Assembly: GCA_036517395.1 (NCBI GenBank)
Contig: DATDWN010000013.1
Span: forward strand, 2,191 to 66,190
DNA: 64,000 nucleotides
Reading direction: 5' to 3'
Origin: Minisyncoccota bacterium
GTDB lineage: Bacteria; Patescibacteriota; Minisyncoccia; Phycocordibacterales; DATDWN01
Notes under the pieces: generated by a model
What the model saw: the letters and a program-made list of their open reading frames with translations, nothing else
Database searches by the model: none
Told to the model about the DNA's origin: nothing
In this document: piece by piece, positions 2,515 to 44,257 of the stretch
Numbering within the stretch: the stretch's first letter is position 1
Layout: each line of letters opens with the position of its first letter
Translations under genes and position numbers: made by a program

Positions 2515-2756
2515 CCGTCGAAGCAAAGAATGCGAATAGCATTCTTTATTTTGTTCCGTTCATTATAAGATTTGATCAATTTTTTATAAAGGGTCAGCAA
2601 AGCGAGTCTGAAAAATTTATTTTTCAGACGAGCGCGCGCCCCCTTTATATCAAAGATACCAATCTTTGATAAGAGTTTGATCCTAGCTCAGGATGAACGC
2701 TGGCGGTGTGGATAAGGCATGCAAGTCAAGGGGGCGCATCACATTGAGTACAATGT

Positions 2757-2880
2757 GAATTTAAAATTTTTACTTTAAAATTTAAAAATAATGACTAAAT
2801 GTTTTAATTTTAAAAATTAATTCATTAAAAATTAAGTTTAAATTCTAAATTCTAAATTAAAAATTCGCATCGCGCGCAGC
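2757..2880 (+). other. AT-rich expansion segment / intervening sequence at the tip of 16S helix 6 (V1)
   Basis: It is bracketed by the complementary ggcgcatcac … gtgatgcgtcacc. The content is low-complexity (aaatt/taaaa). Confidence 0.5.
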
Positions 2881-3274
2881 GTGATGCGTCACCGGCGAAC
2901 GAGGTAGTAACACGTGGGTACATACCCTGAAGTCAGGAATAACCAGTCGAAAGATTGGATAATACTTGATGTGATCTTCGGATCAAAGTCGCAAGACGCT
3001 TTAGGAATGGCCTGCGAAGTATCAGCTAGTTGGTAGTGTAATGGACTACCAAGGCTATGACGCTTAGGGGGAGTGAGAGCTTGGCCCCCACCGATGAGAC
3101 TGAGACACGGCTCATACACCTACGGGTGGCCGCAGCCGAGAATATTCGACAATGGACGAAAGTCTGATCGAGCGACACCGCGTGATGGATGAAGACCCTA
3201 GGGTCGTAAACATCTTTTATGAGGGAGAAAGTTTATTGATAGTACCTCACGAATAAGGGGTTTCAAAACTCGTG

Positions 3275-4220
3275 AAATGTGGGTTAAGCACCCACTTCCA
3301 TTTGAAACTTAAAAATTCGTAATTACCGTGCGCGACTTAGGGCCGTGAGGTTCTAAGCAAATTCGGCTTATATGCTGGAAATCTGTAAAGACTGCGCCAA
3401 ACACTTTTAAAAAAAGTGCGAGGTCCTTGACAGACAATCAGCAGGGAAGTCGGTATAATTAAGTAGTGAGTTTAACAAACAGACAAAAGGAAATAATAGT
3501 AGGCACTTTGTTGGGTGACGGATACTTGGAACATGATGGTTTCAAGGCGAGTAGATTGCAGATAAAGCAATGTGATCGCAAAAAAGATTATGTTTTTTGG
3601 CTCTATAACGAGCTGAAAAATTTAGTCAGAACTCCACTCAAACAAAGGAAAGATAACCAGCAATGGTATTTCAGCACCAGATCTCTAGTAGAGTTGGATT
3701 TTTTTAGAAGTCTTTTCTACGGATTTGGGAAAAAAGCTGTACCATCTATTATAAAAGAATTACCATTTTCTTCTCTTAGTCTTGCAGTCTGGTTTATGGA
3801 TGATGGGTCGTTGGATTATAGAGTAAAATACCATTACTCCTTTTCCTTCAGCACTGATTCATTCAATGAGCCAGATGTAAAACTTTTGACAGAATTATTA
3901 TTTGAAAAGTTTGATATAAAATCAAACATTCAGATGGTGGTTTCTCGAGGAAAGAAATATGTAAGACTGTATGTCGGTAAAGACGGAAGAGATAATTTTC
4001 TCTCTGTCGTAAGGCCTCATATTTTGTCCTGTTTTGATTACAAACTACCTCCGATTATAATTGACCCCTCAGAGACTGATCTTGAGAAAGTGAAGACTTT
4101 CAACACAGTGAGATAGAGAGATTTTTTTAAATCTTCTATAAGACGCCGAACCCCTTCCAAATGTAAATTTGTCAGGGTGATGATATAGTCCAATCCTCTT
4201 AGTGATAGGAGAAAAGAAGG
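3275..4220 (+). mobile_element. Group I intron in 16S rRNA (insertion near E. coli position ~515, just 5' of CCAGCAGCCGCGGTAATAC) carrying a homing-endonuclease ORF
   Basis: It interrupts a universally conserved 16S region. A P7/S-element-like gatgatatagtcc lies near the 3' end. The boundaries are approximate (±15 nt). Confidence 0.65.
3466..4116 (+). CDS. LAGLIDADG homing endonuclease (two-motif, single-chain) encoded within the group I intron
   Basis: The two LAGLIDADG motifs are GTLLGDGYLE and LAVWFMDDGS. Confidence 0.8.
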   Translation: MSLTNRQKEIIVGTLLGDGYLEHDGFKASRLQIKQCDRKKDYVFWLYNELKNLVRTPLKQRKDNQQWYFSTRSLVELDFFRSLFYGFGKKAVPSIIKELPFSSLSLAVWFMDDGSLDYRVKYHYSFSFSTDSFNEPDVKLLTELLFEKFDIKSNIQMVVSRGKKYVRLYVGKDGRDNFLSVVRPHILSCFDYKLPPIIIDPSETDLEKVKTFNTVR

Positions 4221-4857
4221 CCAGCAGAAGCGGTAATACGAGTACCCCGAGCGTTATCCGGAATTATTGGGCGTAAAGGGTGTGTAGGTGGTAGTGTTAG
4301 TCATTTGTTAAAACCCGAGGCTTAACCTCGGATCCGCGAATGATACGGCACAACTAGAGGATGGCAGGGATGTATGGAACTCATGGAGTAGGGGTGAAAT
4401 CCGTTGATATCATGGGGAACACCGAAAGCGAAGGCATTACATTGGGCCACTCCTGACACTGAAACACGAAAGCGTGGGTAGCGAATGGGATTAGATACCC
4501 CAGTAGTCCACGCCCTAAACGATGACAACTAGCTTTTCGGAGTATCGACCCTCTGAGAGGCGTAGCTAACGCGTTAAGTTGTCCGCCTGGGTAGTACGAC
4601 CGCAAGGTTAAAACTCAAAGGAATAGACGGGGACTTGCACAAGCAGAGGATTATGTGGTTTAATTCGATGGCAAACGAAGAACCTTACCAAGATTTGAAA
4701 CCCAACTGAAGACAGAGAGAAATTTTTGTTGTCCCACAAGGACAGTTGGGCAGGTGATTCATGGCCGTCGTCAGTTCGTGATTTGAATTGTTCCCTTAAG
4801 TGGGGTAACGAACGCAACCCTCGTTGTCTGTTACACGTATCAGGCGAGACTGCCCAG

Positions 4858-4990
4858 CTTTTTGTCCGGTAGGACATAAAGCTGAATAAAGAATAACGAA
4901 TATTGAATAAAGAATGAATGCAGAATACAAACTGTATTAAATCATTATTCATAATTCACGATTCATTATTCTCTTTTTGTTCGCTAGCGA
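4858..4990 (+). other. AT-rich expansion segment in the 16S hairpin equivalent to E. coli ~1160-1175 (cccagcTTTTTGT…ACAAAAAgctggg)
   Basis: Conserved 16S sequence flanks it on both sides (gactgcccagc … gctgggaggaaggcg). It contains three copies of GAATAAAGAA. Confidence 0.45.
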
Positions 4991-5792
4991 ACAAAAAGCT
5001 GGGAGGAAGGCGAGGATGACGCCAGGTCAGCATGTCCCTTTGATATCTTGGGCTACACACATAATACAATGGCGACTACAACGCGTTGCGACGCCGTAAG
5101 GCTGAGCCAATCGTAATAAAAGTCGCCCCAGTTCAGATTGGGGGCTGAAACTCGACCCCATGAAGTTGGATTTGCTAGTAATCGCGGGTCAGCTATACCG
5201 CGGTGAATACGTTCTCAAGTCTTGTACTCACCGCCCGTCAACTCAGGGGAGTTGGGAGTACCCGAAGTCCTGCATATGCAGGCCCACGGTAAACTCAATG
5301 ACAAAGAGTAAGTCGTAACAAGGCACGGCTAGGGGAACCTGGTCGTGGAATAATTCAATTTGAAATACTTTTCGCTTTGCGAAAGGAAAGTCATATCAAT
5401 CGCAAGAAAGATATGAATGTGTGTCGATTCCAGCCCCAGTTCTGAAACTAAATCTATAATGTCACGGAGTTTATAGTAGGTATAAACTTTGATAACAAAA
5501 ATAATATTGGTATCAGAACTGGAGCTGGAGGACAATGATTGTCTCGTCCTAAAACAATCTGACACTTGGAAAGACAGGAATGAACGGAACAAAATAAAGA
5601 ATGATATACCATCGTGTGGGACACGATGAAGTTGAAAGTTAAAAGTCCATAAAGTTTGTAAAGTAAATGTAACCACAAAAATACCGCTATAATAGGCGGT
5701 ATTTTTGATGCCGAAGTCCTGTACTGAGCTTTGCTCTGGTGCGGGATTGACTTTATACTGGGAAGTGTTATATAATAATAGACGGAGGAAAC

Positions 5793-6534: not shown

Positions 6535-6941
6535 CTTTGAGCAGAATTTGATATAATATAAAATAAAACATCATGATAAATCGCAAATCCACATTTTTCC
6601 TTGGTATTTTTATTTTTCTCATACCTTTTTTGGGCTTACCTAGTTCTTGGAAAACAGCCTTGGTTGTTATTTGTGGTTTGATTCTAGTTTTCCTCTCGGT
6701 AAAAGTTATCCTACCAAGGAAAACTATCGCCAATAGAAGTAGGATGAAAAAAGAAAGATCAATACCCGTCTTTGTTGAAAGCTTGCCAACATATTCGATT
6801 GATAACTCGGAAACAAAAGAAACCCAGCCGGAGATAGAAATAAAATAGCATGTCCGGTAGTAGAAGTTGACATTGCGCCAAAGGCGCATAAAACAGCAAA
6901 AATAATAGATATGATAAAGCTGAAATTAACAACTTATAAAT

Positions 6942-37878: not shown

Positions 37879-38643
37879 ATGTTGTTTAACAGAAAGAGGG
37901 ACAGAATGTCTTCAAAAAAGACACGACAGAACTCGACCGACAAGAAGCCGACGTTGGAGATGCTCATCGACCTCACTCGTGTTGTCATGGGCGTCCTCGC
38001 GCGACTTTCGTTCGAGAAGGTTAACGTCCTCCTCGGCAACAAGACACTTCTCAGCAAGAAGCTGGAGAAGGTCTTTGAGATCGCGGCGGATCCGTTCGCT
38101 GCCGTACGCACCGAGTGGGAGAAGTTCTACCTCGACCACTGCAACATCGTCGTCGACTTCTCGGAAGTGACGATTCCTACAAAGCCGAGCGAGGGCTCAT
38201 GGCGGCTCATCTTCGTCTCGCAGGGTCTGACCATGAACGTCATACTCGCAGTGATGCGAGCGAAGTTCAAGGCATGGGTCTATGCCGAGGACTTGGACGG
38301 CAATGTGCCTACCAATACCCGCACGAGCGTCCAGAGCTACGCCAAGTGGGTACGCGACGGTGTTGAGCCAGACGAGGAATACCTCGGCAAGACTACTCGC
38401 GACGCAGACATGACGGGAACCATCGGCATGACGCTCCTCGAGCGTCTCGTGCTTGGGGTCAAGCATTTCGTCGAGACAGGGAAGCATCTCGACATCAAAG
38501 GCTGGACCATCTGCACGGGTTCTCGTTACTCGGACGGCAGCGTGCCGTTCGTGTACTGGGGCCCGAGCACGGCCGAGGTCAAGGTGAACTGGTGCAGCGT
38601 CGGCAGCTCGAATCCGACGTGCGGTCTCCGTCAGGCAGTGTGA
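37879..38643 (+). CDS. DGR target (variable) protein. The C-terminal ~39 aa are encoded by the VR. The gene is GC-rich (~56%). An alternative start at 37906 has an SD.
   Basis: The last 116 nt match the downstream TR, differing only at TR adenines. The C-terminus …VNWCSVGSSNPTCGLRQAV resembles the C-type-lectin-fold VR ends of DGR targets. Confidence 0.7.
   Translation: MLFNRKRDRMSSKKTRQNSTDKKPTLEMLIDLTRVVMGVLARLSFEKVNVLLGNKTLLSKKLEKVFEIAADPFAAVRTEWEKFYLDHCNIVVDFSEVTIPTKPSEGSWRLIFVSQGLTMNVILAVMRAKFKAWVYAEDLDGNVPTNTRTSVQSYAKWVRDGVEPDEEYLGKTTRDADMTGTIGMTLLERLVLGVKHFVETGKHLDIKGWTICTGSRYSDGSVPFVYWGPSTAEVKVNWCSVGSSNPTCGLRQAV
38519..38634 (+). repeat. DGR variable repeat (VR)
   Basis: 116-nt alignment to 38934-39049. 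All 14 mismatches have A in the TR. Confidence 0.8.
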
Positions 38644-38651
38644 TTTTCTCT

Positions 38652-38697
38652 TGTTCTCTTTTCACTTTTACCCTGCATTCGTGCAACCTTTTTCTTG
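38652..38697 (+). other. 18-bp RNA-type hairpin directly 3' of the VR, with three G·U wobbles, so strand-specific
   Basis: ccctgcattcgtgcaacc-tttttctt-ggttgcgcgggtgcaggg. Confidence 0.5.
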
Positions 38698-38933
38698 GTT
38701 GCGCGGGTGCAGGGTAATTTCGTATACTAAACATGGCTGTTAAGCTAGTCAGTGTCTATTTTACAAAAATAATATTGATGGTAGTTTGCCAAACATAAAA
38801 CTGCTTGTGAGTGTTTATGCATAGATGATTACAAGTGTGATGATGCAACACAGTGCCTGAGACATCAGGGTATAACACAGAGACTTTGGAAACAGAGAAT
38901 CGGTGAAATGGAAGAATGCTCACAAAAAAGACT

Positions 38934-39049
38934 GTTCTCGTAACTCGGACGGCAACGTGCCGATCGTGTACTGGAACCCGAACACGGCCAAGGTCAAGGT
39001 GAACTGGTACAGCGTCGACAACTCGAATCCGACGAACGGTCTCCGTCAG
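38934..39049 (+). repeat. DGR template repeat (TR), rich in AAC codons
   Basis: It is non-coding in the VR frame. 14 adenines correspond to non-A bases in the VR. Confidence 0.8.
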
Positions 39050-39072
39050 AAGTTTTAGCAAAGAATCTCGAT

Positions 39073-39360
39073 CTAGGTCGGGATTTTTTGTTGTTCCATA
39101 TATTTTATCCATTGATTTGTCATCTTCGATGTTTCTATGACAAGCCCTTCTATTCTTATGTACGCTTTCTCCTCGATGATTTTCAGTTCATGTTCCATGC
39201 GGACAAAATTCTTTAGGATTTCCAAAAGTATTCGAGCCTTTTCTAAAGTTTCCAGCTTATTATTTTTGTGAGAGTAGTAAGCTTTTATAAGCAAGTACAT
39301 TATTTCTTGGGCCGTCCCTTCGATGTATGCATGAATTCCAAGTTTGTCAGATTTCGGCAA
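39073..39360 (-). CDS. Avd-like small helical accessory protein of the DGR (four-helix-bundle family), divergently oriented to the RT
   Basis: 95 aa, predicted all-helical and charged. It sits between the TR and the RT. The assignment rests on position and composition. Confidence 0.4.
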   Translation of the reverse strand: MPKSDKLGIHAYIEGTAQEIMYLLIKAYYSHKNNKLETLEKARILLEILKNFVRMEHELKIIEEKAYIRIEGLVIETSKMTNQWIKYMEQQKIPT

Positions 39361-39434
39361 TTTCTTTCCTGTCTGGTATATGACAATGTATACTTGTTTA
39401 ATACTATGAATAATAGAAATATCGCTGTTGTTGC

Positions 39435-39443
39435 GGGGGGGGG
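39435..39443. repeat. Homopolymeric G9 tract in the avd–RT divergent intergenic region
   Basis: ttgcgggggggggagc. Confidence 0.6.
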
Positions 39444-39458
39444 AGCACTATTGGAAAT

Positions 39459-40457
39459 TTGTTTCATAATATTGTCAGTCTATCAAATTTGCTCCACGCA
39501 TGGGAAGAGTTCAAAAGAGGAAAGTCAAAGAAAAAAGATGTCGCTCTCTTTGAGCTTAATCTCGAGGATAATATTTTTGAGTTACACAGAAGCCTAGTCT
39601 CTAAAGCATATCAGCACACGGAGTATGAGGCTTTTTATATTAGTGATCCAAAACTAAGGAATATACACAAGGCATCTGTGCGTGATCGTGTTGTTCATCA
39701 AGCTGTATATAGAATTTTGTGCCAGATTTTTGATAAACATTTTATATATGATTCTTACTCATCGCGAAAATCGCGGGGAACACATTTGGGTGTAAGGCGT
39801 TCTTATAAGGCTTGTCGTAAAGTAAGTAAAAATTGGAGAAGAAAAATCTACATACTGAAATGCGATGTCAGAAAATTCTTTGATTCAATGGATCACTCTA
39901 TTCTGCGTGTTCTTATTGAGAAAAAAGTATTATGTTTGGAGACAATGAGGCTGGTCGATTTGGTTTTGGAGAGTTTCAAGAAAGAAACGGGAAAGGGTCT
40001 GCCACTAGGCAATGTTACAAGCCAACTTTTTGCCAATATTTACCTCGATCAATTTGACCAGTTTGTGAAGCATGGCCTTAAAATGAGGTATTATTTCAGA
40101 TATTGCGACGATTTTATTATTATTTCTGAAAATAAACAGTTTTTATCTGAACTTGTGGATAAGATTAAAATATTTCTGGATCAAAATCTGCTACTCAAAC
40201 TTCATCCTGATAAAGTTGAGATCAGAAGCATGAGGCAGGGAATAGATTTTCTCGGTTATGTGTGTCTGCCGAACATGATTGTATTGAGGACCAAGACAAA
40301 AAAAAGAATTATAAAAAAGATAAAGATAATGTTTGGAAAATTAAAAGCGGGAGAGATTTCACTTACCACATTCAAAAACACTCTAATGTCTTATCTAGGC
40401 GTCGTATCTCACTGTTGTAGTAGGGAAATAGAATTTTACATAAAACGCTTTTTATAA
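39459..40457 (+). CDS. Reverse transcriptase, DGR type
   Basis: RT motif 4 reads LPLGNVTSQLFANIYL (the SQ variant typical of DGR RTs). Motif 5 reads RYCDDFII (YxDD). It is adjacent to the TR/VR pair. Confidence 0.8.
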   Translation: MFHNIVSLSNLLHAWEEFKRGKSKKKDVALFELNLEDNIFELHRSLVSKAYQHTEYEAFYISDPKLRNIHKASVRDRVVHQAVYRILCQIFDKHFIYDSYSSRKSRGTHLGVRRSYKACRKVSKNWRRKIYILKCDVRKFFDSMDHSILRVLIEKKVLCLETMRLVDLVLESFKKETGKGLPLGNVTSQLFANIYLDQFDQFVKHGLKMRYYFRYCDDFIIISENKQFLSELVDKIKIFLDQNLLLKLHPDKVEIRSMRQGIDFLGYVCLPNMIVLRTKTKKRIIKKIKIMFGKLKAGEISLTTFKNTLMSYLGVVSHCCSREIEFYIKRFL

Positions 40458-40542
40458 AAAGTTATCCACACTTTTTATAAAAATCCAACTTGATTTTATT
40501 TTTTTGTACTATAATTAACGCAGGTCGGAAACAAAAAAATAA

Positions 40543-40681
40543 ATCCGCACACCAACTTTGATCTCGTTGCATTTGTCTCAAAGTTTAGTTGTACATCTTG
40601 AATTTAGATATAACTTCTAAATTTTGTTTGACTGTTTATGTGGCAACAGGGAGACAAGACCAAAGTTGGTGTTCGGATAAA
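40543..40681 (+). repeat. Inverted-repeat element family 1, copy 5 (100-nt spacer; arms extended by gcaacagggagac)
   Basis: atccgcacaccaactttg…ctcgttgc … gcaacagggagacaagaccaaagttggtgttcggataaa. Confidence 0.7.
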
Positions 40682-40855: not shown

Positions 40856-40879
40856 AAAAATCCGCACGTGCGGATTTTT
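40856..40879. repeat. Perfect palindrome AAAAATCCGCAC|GTGCGGATTTTT, made of two abutting family-1 core half-sites
   Basis: Read directly. Confidence 0.8.
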
Positions 40880-40885
40880 GTTTTT

Positions 40886-41020
40886 ATCCGCACACTAATT
40901 TTGGCATCGTCTCCCTGTTGCTATATAGAGGGGCTGCAAAAGTATCAGATTGTATCTAAATGTGGCTGTATATCTAGAATTTGAGACTAGATGCAACTAT
41001 GCCAAATTTAGTGTGCGGAT
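40886..41020 (+). repeat. Inverted-repeat element family 1, copy 6 (91-nt spacer), 40 nt upstream of secA
   Basis: atccgcacactaattttggcat…gtctccctgttgc … atgccaaatttagtgtgcggat. Confidence 0.8.
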
Positions 41021-41060
41021 GAATGTTAAAATCAGCATTTTATGCTAAAATGAGTCACAT

Positions 41061-43687: not shown

Positions 43688-44257
43688 ATGGGACAGATAA
43701 TGTTCACCCTGCCGGCCGGCAGGGAGTTTGAGAGAACGTTTTTCGGTCTTCCCGTGAGCTGGGTTCCTTCCTACTGGGCTCCACGACTTGGGTTTGATGC
43801 TGCTATCCAGCAGGTCATCCAAGACAACTGGGCTCAGTTCGCTGAGGCTCAAAGGTTGGGGGCCTCGTACGTGCACAACCCGATTGAGCCCGAGATGGGC
43901 AGGACGCCGGATGTCTGGAGCATGGTAAAGGGGTATCTTCCAGAAGAGGTTGATGGCCGAAACCCGCCACTTGGCCTTTACGTGGCACTTGGTAGTTCCC
44001 TCGACCTGCACTATGGGGTCGATGCTTTCTTCTGGTGGGATGGTTGCTGTGCAACAGTTGACCTCTCTCTTCAGGAGAAGACCAAGGGGGCTCAGAATCC
44101 CAAGATGGTCCTTCATGCAGATATGCTGATTGGGCTGTCGATTTTACGCCGTGGTGGTCTAAACTGGTTCGGACGACGCATGGCCAGACTATTGATACAC
44201 CGACGGGAAGTGCTCGTCGGGACAGGAAGTAGGATTGGCAAAGTTCGTTGGGTGTGA
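43688..44257 (+). CDS. Hypothetical protein encoded on a GC-rich island (~57% GC) with its own TTGACA-17-TAGAGT promoter and strong SD
   Basis: Composition contrasts with flanking genes. SD ggaggcagggATG. A terminal hairpin lies at 44257-44295. Confidence 0.4.
   Translation: MGQIMFTLPAGREFERTFFGLPVSWVPSYWAPRLGFDAAIQQVIQDNWAQFAEAQRLGASYVHNPIEPEMGRTPDVWSMVKGYLPEEVDGRNPPLGLYVALGSSLDLHYGVDAFFWWDGCCATVDLSLQEKTKGAQNPKMVLHADMLIGLSILRRGGLNWFGRRMARLLIHRREVLVGTGSRIGKVRWV

Follow-up and report, generated by a model that had tools for sequence, protein, structure and literature searches.

The stretch of DNA analysed here, 64,000 nucleotides of contig DATDWN010000013.1 of a Minisyncoccota bacterium (positions 2,191 to 66,190; hereafter the window), carries at 37,879–40,457 a diversity-generating retroelement (DGR) composed of a target gene ending in a variable repeat (VR), a template repeat (TR), an avd-like gene and a reverse transcriptase (RT) gene. 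With a probability of about 0.8, the element is read as a chromosomal DGR of Patescibacteria, of the target-TR-(avd)-RT lineage of the candidate phyla radiation (CPR), working by the mechanism set out below and gated by a run of G residues in the overlap of avd and RT. The DGR as such is of a known type that is common in the CPR and its tiny groundwater bacteria; what is unusual is the polymorphic simple-sequence repeat (SSR), the apparently permuted TR RNA and a GC excess of the target gene throughout its family. An earlier note, made from the letters alone, had already proposed a DGR here, and this core reading was supported by the adenine-specific TR/VR pair, the Avd-like gene, an RT resembling that of the Bordetella phage (bRT) and the lectin fold predicted for the VR-bearing domain. 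The element lies between a gene for a Wzy_C/TPR membrane protein and secA in a genome that NCBI labels Candidatus Paceibacterota, and it was compared with 86 related loci, gathered by searching with the target once in a genome collection and once in metagenomes. In coordinates of the window, the layout of the target gene and the repeats is as follows.

37906–38643, plus strand: target (variable-protein) gene, 245 aa, with a helical N-terminal region and a predicted C-terminal C-type-lectin/FGE-like fold.
38519–38634, plus strand: VR, the last ~39 codons of the target, with 12 differences from the TR.
38622–38634, plus strand: 3′ end of the VR/TR homology, CGGTCTCCGTCAG, a GC-rich and invariant boundary like an initiation of mutagenic homing (IMH) site, at which the homology ends.
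38934–39049, plus strand: TR, with 29 A in the VR frame, at codon positions 1 or 2 only.

The two 116-nt direct repeats, 415 nt apart, lie exactly where the earlier note had placed them. Base-by-base comparison gave 12 mismatches and not the 14 counted there (13 if the comparison runs through 38635 G / 39050 A), while the accompanying rule held at every one of the 12, the TR base always being A and the VR base G (nine times) or T (three times). With 29 A among the 116 TR nucleotides, the probability that 12 random mismatches all hit A is 7.5e-9. All 12 fall on codon positions 1 or 2 of ORF 37906–38643, and the TR adenines are distributed 14/15/0 over codon positions 1, 2 and 3; AAC makes up 7 of the 38 TR codons, which agrees with the AAC richness remarked on earlier. 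The in-gene repeat covers the last 39 codons of the target, likewise as described before. Across the related cassettes (37 distinct TRs), 653 of 713 TR/VR mismatches (91.6%) were located at TR adenines, and a chance repeat is ruled out by this family-wide adenine pattern together with the P value above.

The homology breaks off sharply at both ends, and its final 13 nt are identical and GC-rich. The base next to the shared 'CAG' (38635/39050; alignment A4 column 426) is A in every TR, while next to the VR end it is C in most loci and G in the window; by its sequence, this appears to be a fixed difference of the IMH/IMH* type, adjoining the template:primer duplex proposed below. The VR ends in an IMH-type boundary and is followed by an inverted repeat, and the IMH* at the TR is not identical to that boundary; the TR has a hairpin as well, of another kind and at another distance. 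No further TR-like copy was detected in the 64-kb window, and a second target or VR within it, including the GC-rich ORF 43688–44257, was rejected on finding neither a TR-like copy nor similarity to the target. The TR itself sits inside a 51-aa ORF (38903–39058) ending in ...NPTNGLRQKF*, and the target homologue P0002 has the same NPTNGLRQKF end, which suggests, from sequence, either that the TR arose from a duplicated target 3′ end or that homing in that homologue took in the tail of the TR.

The order of parts is shared among the relatives. An RT on the same strand within 2 kb was present at 31 of the 49 loci having at least 1.5 kb downstream of the target, a TR-like repeat at 41 of the 64 having at least 600 nt downstream, and the start-to-start offsets of TR and VR ranged from 342 to 460 nt (median 401; 37 distinct TRs). 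Locus L009, whose RT is 68% identical, has the same order and strands as the window, the minus-strand avd included. This order corresponds to the 'TR-(avd)-RT' architecture B3, reported for 90% of CPR DGRs and hardly any others (Wu et al., 2018, PMC5758913), and for its host group the DGR is therefore an ordinary one; a Patescibacteria-restricted DGR clade ('clade 2') whose targets lack recognisable domains and are predicted to adopt novel C-Lec folds has also been described (Roux et al., 2021, PMC8144416). L009 (6611–6734) and L011 (~6600–6717), on the same contig CAVSGX010000007.1, represent one DGR with two targets about 10 kb apart. The adjacent VR of L009 has a 1-nt indel relative to the TR, with a frameshifted C-terminus, and the remote VR of L011 has an in-frame stop; judged from sequence, both look like costs of mutagenic homing.

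The ATG at 37906, with GAGGG 6 nt upstream, is the more likely start of the target than the ATG at 37879, and gene callers in other assemblies likewise give a 245-aa protein. No Pfam or NCBIfam domain was found in it, and no obvious signal peptide or lipobox by inspection. Its AlphaFold2 (AF2) model (mean confidence, pLDDT, 92.5) matches FGE and C-type-lectin folds, including those of TvpA, Mtd and TaqVP, so that a C-type-lectin-fold VR domain, suggested at the outset from the way the target ends, gains support from the model, in which the VR is predicted to be carried by that fold.

The two genes of the machinery and the run between them are arranged as follows.

39073–39467, minus strand: avd; as assembled 39073–39360 (95 aa from TTG), without helix 1; conserved ATG at 39467–39465.
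39435–39443, no strand assigned: G9/C9 homopolymer inside the head-to-head avd/RT overlap; G10 in two other assemblies.
39406–40457, plus strand: DGR RT; as assembled 39459–40457 (332 aa from TTG); conserved ATG at 39406 (MNNRNIAVVAGGG...).

ORF 39459–40457 matches Pfam RVT_1 and has the motifs LPLGNVTSQLFANIYL and YCDD, the SQ motif and YCDD having been taken before as marks of a DGR-type RT. That assignment was borne out by the PDB matches: the best solved relative was bRT (8ub7; E 1.8e-39, residues 4–289 aligned), vs. E 1.1e-19 for the group II intron RT GsI-IIC and ~4e-15 for retron-type RTs, and LGNVTSQLFANIY aligns with IGSLTSQLFANVY of bRT, as does YCDD with its YMDD. An identity as group II intron or retron RT is ruled out by this ranking. 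On the group II model of NCBIfam, which holds no DGR-RT model, the RT scored 145 against a cutoff of 300.

The 95-aa ORF 39073–39360, previously described as Avd-like, matches Avd profiles from profile position 21 on. Its frame is open upstream to 39441, and once extended it matches NF033474 over the full length (positions 2–104 of 104, E 4e-12, below the curated cutoff) and also PF22296 (E 2e-8). Precomputed Pfam annotation labels the product bAvd, and NCBI 'four helix bundle protein'. As assembled, helix 1 has no canonical start.

The G9 run is the sole G or C run of at least 7 nt in the window, and G8–G11 occurs at the same place in 32 of 32 related cassettes having TR and RT (29 distinct; RT identity 46–69%), the runs being pure in all 29. 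Within 483 kb of related loci, 33 of the 35 G/C runs of at least 8 nt are at the avd/RT overlap, and the remaining two are at contig ends, where RT would follow. In roughly half of the called RT homologues, the start precedes the run, which is then translated as GGG (MNNRNI…GGG…FH.I.S..NL); in the Avd frame it gives PPP, with the conserved helix 1 next. Neither the RT ATG at 39406 nor the Avd ATG at 39467 (MKQISNSAPPP) is in frame at G9, whereas with G10 the two are. The parts of the 'complete' DGR announced by the earlier note are therefore all present, but in the G9 allele avd and RT are out of frame with their conserved ATGs.

The overlap can be compared with that of the run-less B3 relatives L095, L098 and L102, which have clean ATG starts and a head-to-head overlap of ~15 nt (RT MRIWH / Avd MPDSH), each Met codon being antisense to a His codon of the other gene. 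In the run-bearing lineage, the Met/His pairing is kept and the overlap is widened to ~60 nt around the run. Because the overlap is codon-aligned through these Met/His pairs, one run length fixes the frames of both avd and RT. Among the 29 distinct cassettes, both genes are out of frame in 15, both in frame in 7, only RT in frame in 6 and only Avd in 1. The run is not a general feature of DGRs or of B3, since only 3 of 80 viral-contig DGRs have one and run-less B3 cassettes exist.

The G9 frame analysis predicted in-frame alleles, and these were found. The 90%-identity cluster of the RT holds a 350-aa form (P0246, MNNRNIAVVAGGGSTIGNLFHN…), whose contigs are L175 and L176. Over 7 kb, L176 departs from the window by a single additional G in the run; over the 9 kb of L175, G10 is joined by one substitution, so that G9/G10 is the sole indel in 7–9 kb; Avd is in frame too in these alleles, reading MKQISNSAPPPRNNSDISIIH…. 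The G10 alleles thus bear out the prediction. Elsewhere, 90%-identity clusters contain one RT body joined to all three upstream frames (MNNRNVKNCVGGGG…, MSKIASGGG…, MRRGGG…), and some members differ by one Gly (in-frame +3 variants, GGG/GGGG). Sub-lineages without the G-run carry (CGGGA)x10.6 (L177) or (GA)x~9 (L178) at the same position, inside both coding regions. The locus thereby shows two of the marks of phase-variable loci, a repeat in the coding 5′ end far beyond chance and a frame-changing length polymorphism among near-identical genomes, and the three slippage-prone repeat types at one site together with this polymorphism give the signature of a contingency locus.

Might the length differences be sequencing or assembly artefacts? 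Errors are common in homopolymers, and the run is where two related contigs break off, yet G9 recurs in the window and in assemblies L001–L005, and G10 was obtained in two assemblies from different pipelines (ENA MEGAHIT and JGI); moreover, all three frames occur in several clusters, alongside the in-frame +3 variants. We hold an artefact for the least probable of the alternatives weighed here. The metagenome contigs L064 (~5258) and L073 (~6381) end 40–100 nt past the G-run, which is consistent with assembly breaks at a length-heterogeneous homopolymer.

Nor does a role of the run apart from frame account well for the family. The run would then be a Shine-Dalgarno or 5′ untranslated region element of RT, or would matter for its PPP/GGG peptide, and the true starts would be the TTG at 39459 for RT and a non-canonical codon for Avd; a GGAG 13 nt before that TTG, an ATG at the 'MFH' position in some relatives and the ATT start given to Avd by the NCBI annotation pipeline (PGAP) accord with this. 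Yet AT-rich genomes would be expected to mix Pro and Gly codons where all 29 cassettes keep pure runs, the GA and CGGGA repeats of other sub-lineages encode quite different peptides there, the codon equivalent to the TTG is CTG in L009, and the run-less relatives start at the Met/His antisense ATGs. Such a role is very improbable.

A further alternative dispenses with a switch in the DNA and lets RNA polymerase or the ribosome slip on the run, so that every allele yields some in-frame Avd and RT while run length drifts neutrally and tunes expression. C-runs read by tRNA-Pro are shift-prone, the frames are near random (the nearest ATG is in frame for Avd in 7 of the 29 cassettes), and the runs, always at least 8 nt, are usually of one length in near-identical copies. 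The near-random frames and the run lengths shared within near-identical groups keep this explanation alive. However, length differences were seen between near-identical genomes, and (GA)n and 5-nt repeats are classic substrates of DNA slippage and poor ones of ribosomal slippage. We regard it as unlikely, though it deserves serious weight beside a switch set by run length.

The putative RNA that carries the TR was outlined from the elements between the VR and avd.

38668–38717, no strand assigned: GC-rich inverted repeat plus short T-run, at the position of the post-IMH hairpin; likely target terminator.
38723–38728, plus strand: −10 box TATACT, directly after the hairpin; TGTATACT, an extended −10, in most relatives.
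38735–38933, plus strand: structured leader of the TR RNA, conserved, with helices H1–H5.
38735–37/38788–90, plus strand: leader helix H1.
38743–53/38774–86, plus strand: leader helix H2.
38796–38802 (UAAAACU, primer-like) / 39051–39057, plus strand: helix H3, then a GC linker at 38803–04.
38805–38816 (Stop-like) / 38914–38925, plus strand: helix H4, pairing with the 12 nt just upstream of the TR.
38880–88/38893–901, plus strand: leader helix H5.
39051–39057, plus strand: AGUUUUA, immediately 3′ of the TR, template side of the proposed duplex; IMH*-side motif GAAGUUUC.
39056–39093, no strand assigned: stem-loop with flanking A-/U-tracts right after the TR, with the avd stop codon in its loop.

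The hairpin after the VR, which had been announced as an 18-bp structure directly following it, is indeed there, but its arms are 21 nt long (38668–38688 / 38697–38717, 8-nt loop, −20.7 kcal/mol, z = −8.3) and it starts 34 nt past the VR end, beyond a pyrimidine-rich spacer. All related cassettes have a hairpin at this place, with varying sequence. The −10 box was present in 31 of 36 loci, 158–242 nt (mostly about 190–200 nt) upstream of the TR, and a conserved GGCUGUUAAGCUAG follows 7–10 nt past it across loci; we infer from these sequences that it is the promoter of the TR RNA. Across loci the TR is followed by GAAGUUU(C/U) and then by a stem-loop of variable sequence with a U-run, the avd stop being in or beside the stem-loop. 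By analogy, the stem-loop at 39056–39093 looks like a bidirectional terminator, and it occupies the position of the Avd-binding stem-loop of the Bordetella RNA.

Compensatory changes support the fold. In an alignment of 31 units, 32 of 45 predicted pairs of the consensus fold still pair through two-sided changes. For 41 pairs in five helices, 94.6% were paired vs. 36–50% with partners slid by 1–3 columns, double-change cells numbered 280 vs. 41–61 for slid partners, the covariation score was 0.63 vs. ~0.13, and none of 500 shuffles matched the observed covariation values. The minimum free energy fold of the window sequence by itself regains H1–H4, and by a crude motif search, L095 and L098, two B3 cassettes lacking the run, were seen to share this layout. 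Compared with Rfam, the TR RNA matched no family, and the hairpin gave chance miRNA-like matches only.

In the Bordetella ribonucleoprotein (RNP), the primer strand Sp47–56 pairs with TR118–129 beside the initiating G117, and a 2-nt linker leads to the cPRT-Stop strand Sp59–70, whose partner lies just before the TR; the TR forms a loop between these duplexes, the stem-loop bound by Avd (Sp3–33) comes directly after the TR, and beyond the Stop strand there are a short stem-loop, the Thumb Ring and an RT-binding stem-loop (Handa et al., bioRxiv 10.1101/2023.10.23.563531). In the window, only ~45 nt lie 3′ of the TR, ending in the stem-loop and U-run before the antisense avd, so the 3′-spacer layout of Bordetella was not found. 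Cutting the Bordetella RNA between the Avd-binding stem-loop and the primer strand and joining its ends yields the order seen here, and by this analogy the TR RNA looks like a circular permutation of it. Handa et al. (bioRxiv 10.1101/2023.10.23.563531) confined their analysis to the 40 nt before and the 100 nt after each TR, and therefore a partner 120–140 nt upstream could not be seen.

The following mechanism is proposed for the G-run-gated DGR. A non-coding RNA of ~360 nt would start at its own promoter just past the terminator hairpin of the target and end at the stem-loop after the TR. Its leader segment 38796–38802 would pair with the 7 nt immediately 3′ of the TR as a template:primer-like duplex and, past a 2-nt linker, 38805–38816 would pair with the 12 nt 5′ of the TR as a cPRT-Stop-like duplex, so that the TR would loop out between the duplexes as in the Bordetella RNP, with the primer/Stop segment placed 5′ of the TR. 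RT and Avd would cis-prime at the 3′ boundary of the TR, misincorporate opposite A and halt at H4, and the cDNA would take the place of the VR, with the GC-rich IMH-like end as the limit and the hairpin downstream as an aid. At most 29 nucleotide positions, or ~20 codons of the lectin-fold surface, could be recoded in this way. Full-length Avd and the long RT would depend on run length, with G10 'on' and the G9 of the window 'off' or strongly reduced, and slippage on the run would gate the mutator.

Several points weigh against this proposal. The Avd scores stay below the curated cutoffs (46 vs. 80 bits for NF033474 and 35 vs. 40 for PF22296), and PGAP calls a 115-aa Avd from a non-canonical ATT start. 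The 332-aa RT that starts at TTG 39459 already contains the region homologous to bRT, from residue 11 of bRT onwards, and by its sequence RT may not be truly off in the G9 allele; Avd, which loses helix 1, is accordingly the most clearly gated component. The equal frame correction of RT and Avd was dismissed as independent evidence, being a geometric result of the overlap. Near-identical copies in four groups have identical run lengths, and homopolymer length in short-read assemblies can be wrong. As to the ~360-nt TR RNA, covariation supports the fold, and we infer the equivalence with Bordetella, the promoter, the RNA ends and the priming nucleotide. Finally, variability of the VR in populations, named beforehand as a check on the DGR, did not appear at the consensus level in any of the nine assemblies compared. 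The RT protein of the window is encoded in at least eight other assemblies; L001, L002, L004 and L005 (spanning the VR) and L003 match the window at 100% identity across VR and TR, and L175 and L176 (G10) have the same VR. The target cluster member P0242 does differ, though not within its VR, and resembles a read-level call of low quality. Past diversification is all that is recorded by the 12 TR/VR mismatches and by the strong divergence of VRs among homologues, and with a consensus VR identical in nine assemblies current activity is unproven.

These last observations bear on the possibility of a decaying or silenced DGR, in which a G9 frameshift has inactivated avd and truncated RT, the VR preserving the trace of earlier activity. 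In its favour, G9 puts the two conserved ATGs out of frame, the consensus VR does not vary among the nine assemblies, and the VRs of relatives are damaged, as described for L009 and L011. However, the gene bodies are free of stops, G10 alleles exist with no other change, and the 15 of 29 cassettes with both genes out of frame all keep coding for Avd helix 1 and intact RTs, which is not expected of independent decay; three repeat types at one site also speak against it. Decay is thus improbable, and the G-run-gated DGR is retained as the preferred reading.

The target gene differs from the rest of the locus in composition, a contrast that had been pointed out before and proved stronger than stated. 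Its GC content is 0.57–0.58 and its GC at third codon positions (GC3) 0.78, and the TR has a GC of 0.58, compared with GC/GC3 of 0.35/0.35 for RT and 0.36/0.43 for avd, a GC of 0.38 for the VR–TR spacer and 0.40 for the genome. Over the ORFs of at least 120 aa in the window (n=53), mean GC3 was 0.387 (sd 0.081), and the runner-up after the target reached 0.589. That runner-up, a 189-aa ORF right after secA (43688–44257; GC 0.55, GC3 0.59), has no Pfam or NCBIfam match and is unrelated to the DGR target or TR. Among the family loci, the target was GC-richer than the remaining locus in 81 of 83 (mean +0.095, Wilcoxon p 4e-15), and the GC3 of the non-VR part of the target exceeded that of the adjacent RT in 31 of 31 cassettes (0.63 vs. 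0.38). Along the gene, target GC3 is flat (0.60–0.67 per 30-codon bin) with sharp edges, and A3 (0.10) and T3 (0.13) are both depleted.

The earlier note had called the target compositionally foreign to the retroelement machinery. A recent acquisition of target and TR from a GC-rich donor would suit a GC3 of 0.78 and a TR GC of 0.58 with sharp boundaries in a genome of 0.40 GC, but the excess is family-wide among target proteins that are only 33–67% identical and uniform along the gene, amelioration should erase one ancient transfer, and repeated transfer of the target only would be unparsimonious. Such an origin is quite improbable, and as a recent acquisition the foreignness of the target is unsupported. 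A gradient from the VR through conversion tracts is ruled out by the flat GC3, and A-specific depletion by off-target mutagenesis by the low values of both A3 and T3; flat GC3, sharp edges and joint A3 and T3 depletion together argue against recent foreign origin, conversion tracts and A-specific erosion alike. From these sequence data, the GC excess appears to be a family-wide trait and not a sign of recent foreign origin.

Taken to the level of the lineage, the proposal is that a large lineage of Patescibacteria DGRs shares an SSR (G8–11, (GA)n or (CGGGA)n) that co-gates avd and RT, a circularly permuted RNA with primer, Stop and RT-binding elements 5′ of the template, and a target whose GC3 is kept ~0.25 above that of the genome by an unknown force. 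We judge this combined claim somewhat more probable than its negation.

Other features were observed in the window. In the 600-nt RT–secA intergenic region, an element of ~25–45 nt with the core ATCCGCACAC.. occurs in four copies of alternating orientation (40536–40572, 40637–40681, 40869–40927 and 40991–41037), which form long inverted repeats; it had no Rfam match and may serve as a structured leader of secA or represent a small mobile repeat. A 16S rRNA gene (2673–5360) matches in two pieces, 2673–3293 (model positions 9–546) and 4068–5360 (the remainder), and the insertion carries a LAGLIDADG homing-endonuclease ORF (3466–4116; PF03161, E 4e-31). rRNA genes of the CPR typically have insertions of this kind. 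The very AT-rich ORF 985–1617 (GC3 0.25), lying just before the rRNA gene, has a weak match to IS200-like Y1 transposases (PF01797, 26 bits vs. a cutoff of 23).

The control of DGR mutagenesis is largely unknown, and CPR bacteria have more DGRs than almost any other group. If the repeat switch of Avd and RT is true, it would add a bet-hedging layer atop a targeted hypermutator and would explain 'inactive' DGRs in population surveys, and run length would be a simple genotype to correlate with VR diversity in existing metagenomes. A permuted RNA, if true, would explain how B3 (~90% of CPR DGRs) works without a 3′ spacer, and would extend the Bordetella RNP mechanism to distant taxa with concrete helices and a candidate priming site. 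The GC excess of the target is an unexplained compositional signal that could aid in finding DGR targets. The structured 5′ leader of the TR, the SSR in the avd/RT overlap and the target GC excess are unmentioned in the literature searched, which included PMC5758913 and PMC8144416, with Paul et al. 2017 and the supplements of Wu et al. outside the search; likewise, no literature linking DGRs to homopolymers, SSRs or phase variation was found, Paul et al. 2017 again being outside the search.

Compared with known systems, the element is closest to the B3 DGRs of CPR and DPANN (PMC5758913) and to clade 2 (PMC8144416), with which it shares gene order, strands, host group, a C-terminal VR and targets without recognisable domains or transmembrane segments. 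With the DGR of Bordetella phage BPP-1 (mtd-avd-TR-brt), it has in common the RT fold and motifs, an Avd-like protein, adenine-specific TR-to-VR transfer, a GC-rich IMH end and a downstream hairpin; in contrast to BPP-1, its avd is on the opposite strand between TR and RT, and its host is a cell and not a phage. The C-terminal ~115 residues of the target share their predicted fold with the DGR variable proteins TvpA (2y3c), Mtd (1yu0) and TaqVP (5vf4), in which the VR occupies the final strands and loops and a conserved G-x-R stands close to the end, whereas identity is only 12–15% and the target is small (245 aa), with a novel helical N-terminal part and no Pfam family.

Similar to the Bordetella RNA, one segment of the TR RNA would carry primer strand, 2-nt linker and Stop strand, the TR would be looped between two duplexes, and a stem-loop lies immediately 3′ of the TR. 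Unlike in Bordetella, the primer/Stop-like segment and its hairpins are ~120–140 nt upstream of the TR, a 140-nt 3′ spacer would not fit, and the TR RNA seems to be transcribed separately, up to a terminator of its own. With the SSR contingency loci of phase variation in Neisseria, Campylobacter and Haemophilus, and with those of phages (PMC12633550), the G-run shares its place in a coding 5′ end, a length polymorphism among near-identical genomes and on/off consequences for frame. Unlike in those loci, one repeat within a codon-aligned head-to-head overlap shifts two divergent genes here, the function that would be gated is a targeted hypermutator, and the host is a CPR bacterium and not a pathogen.

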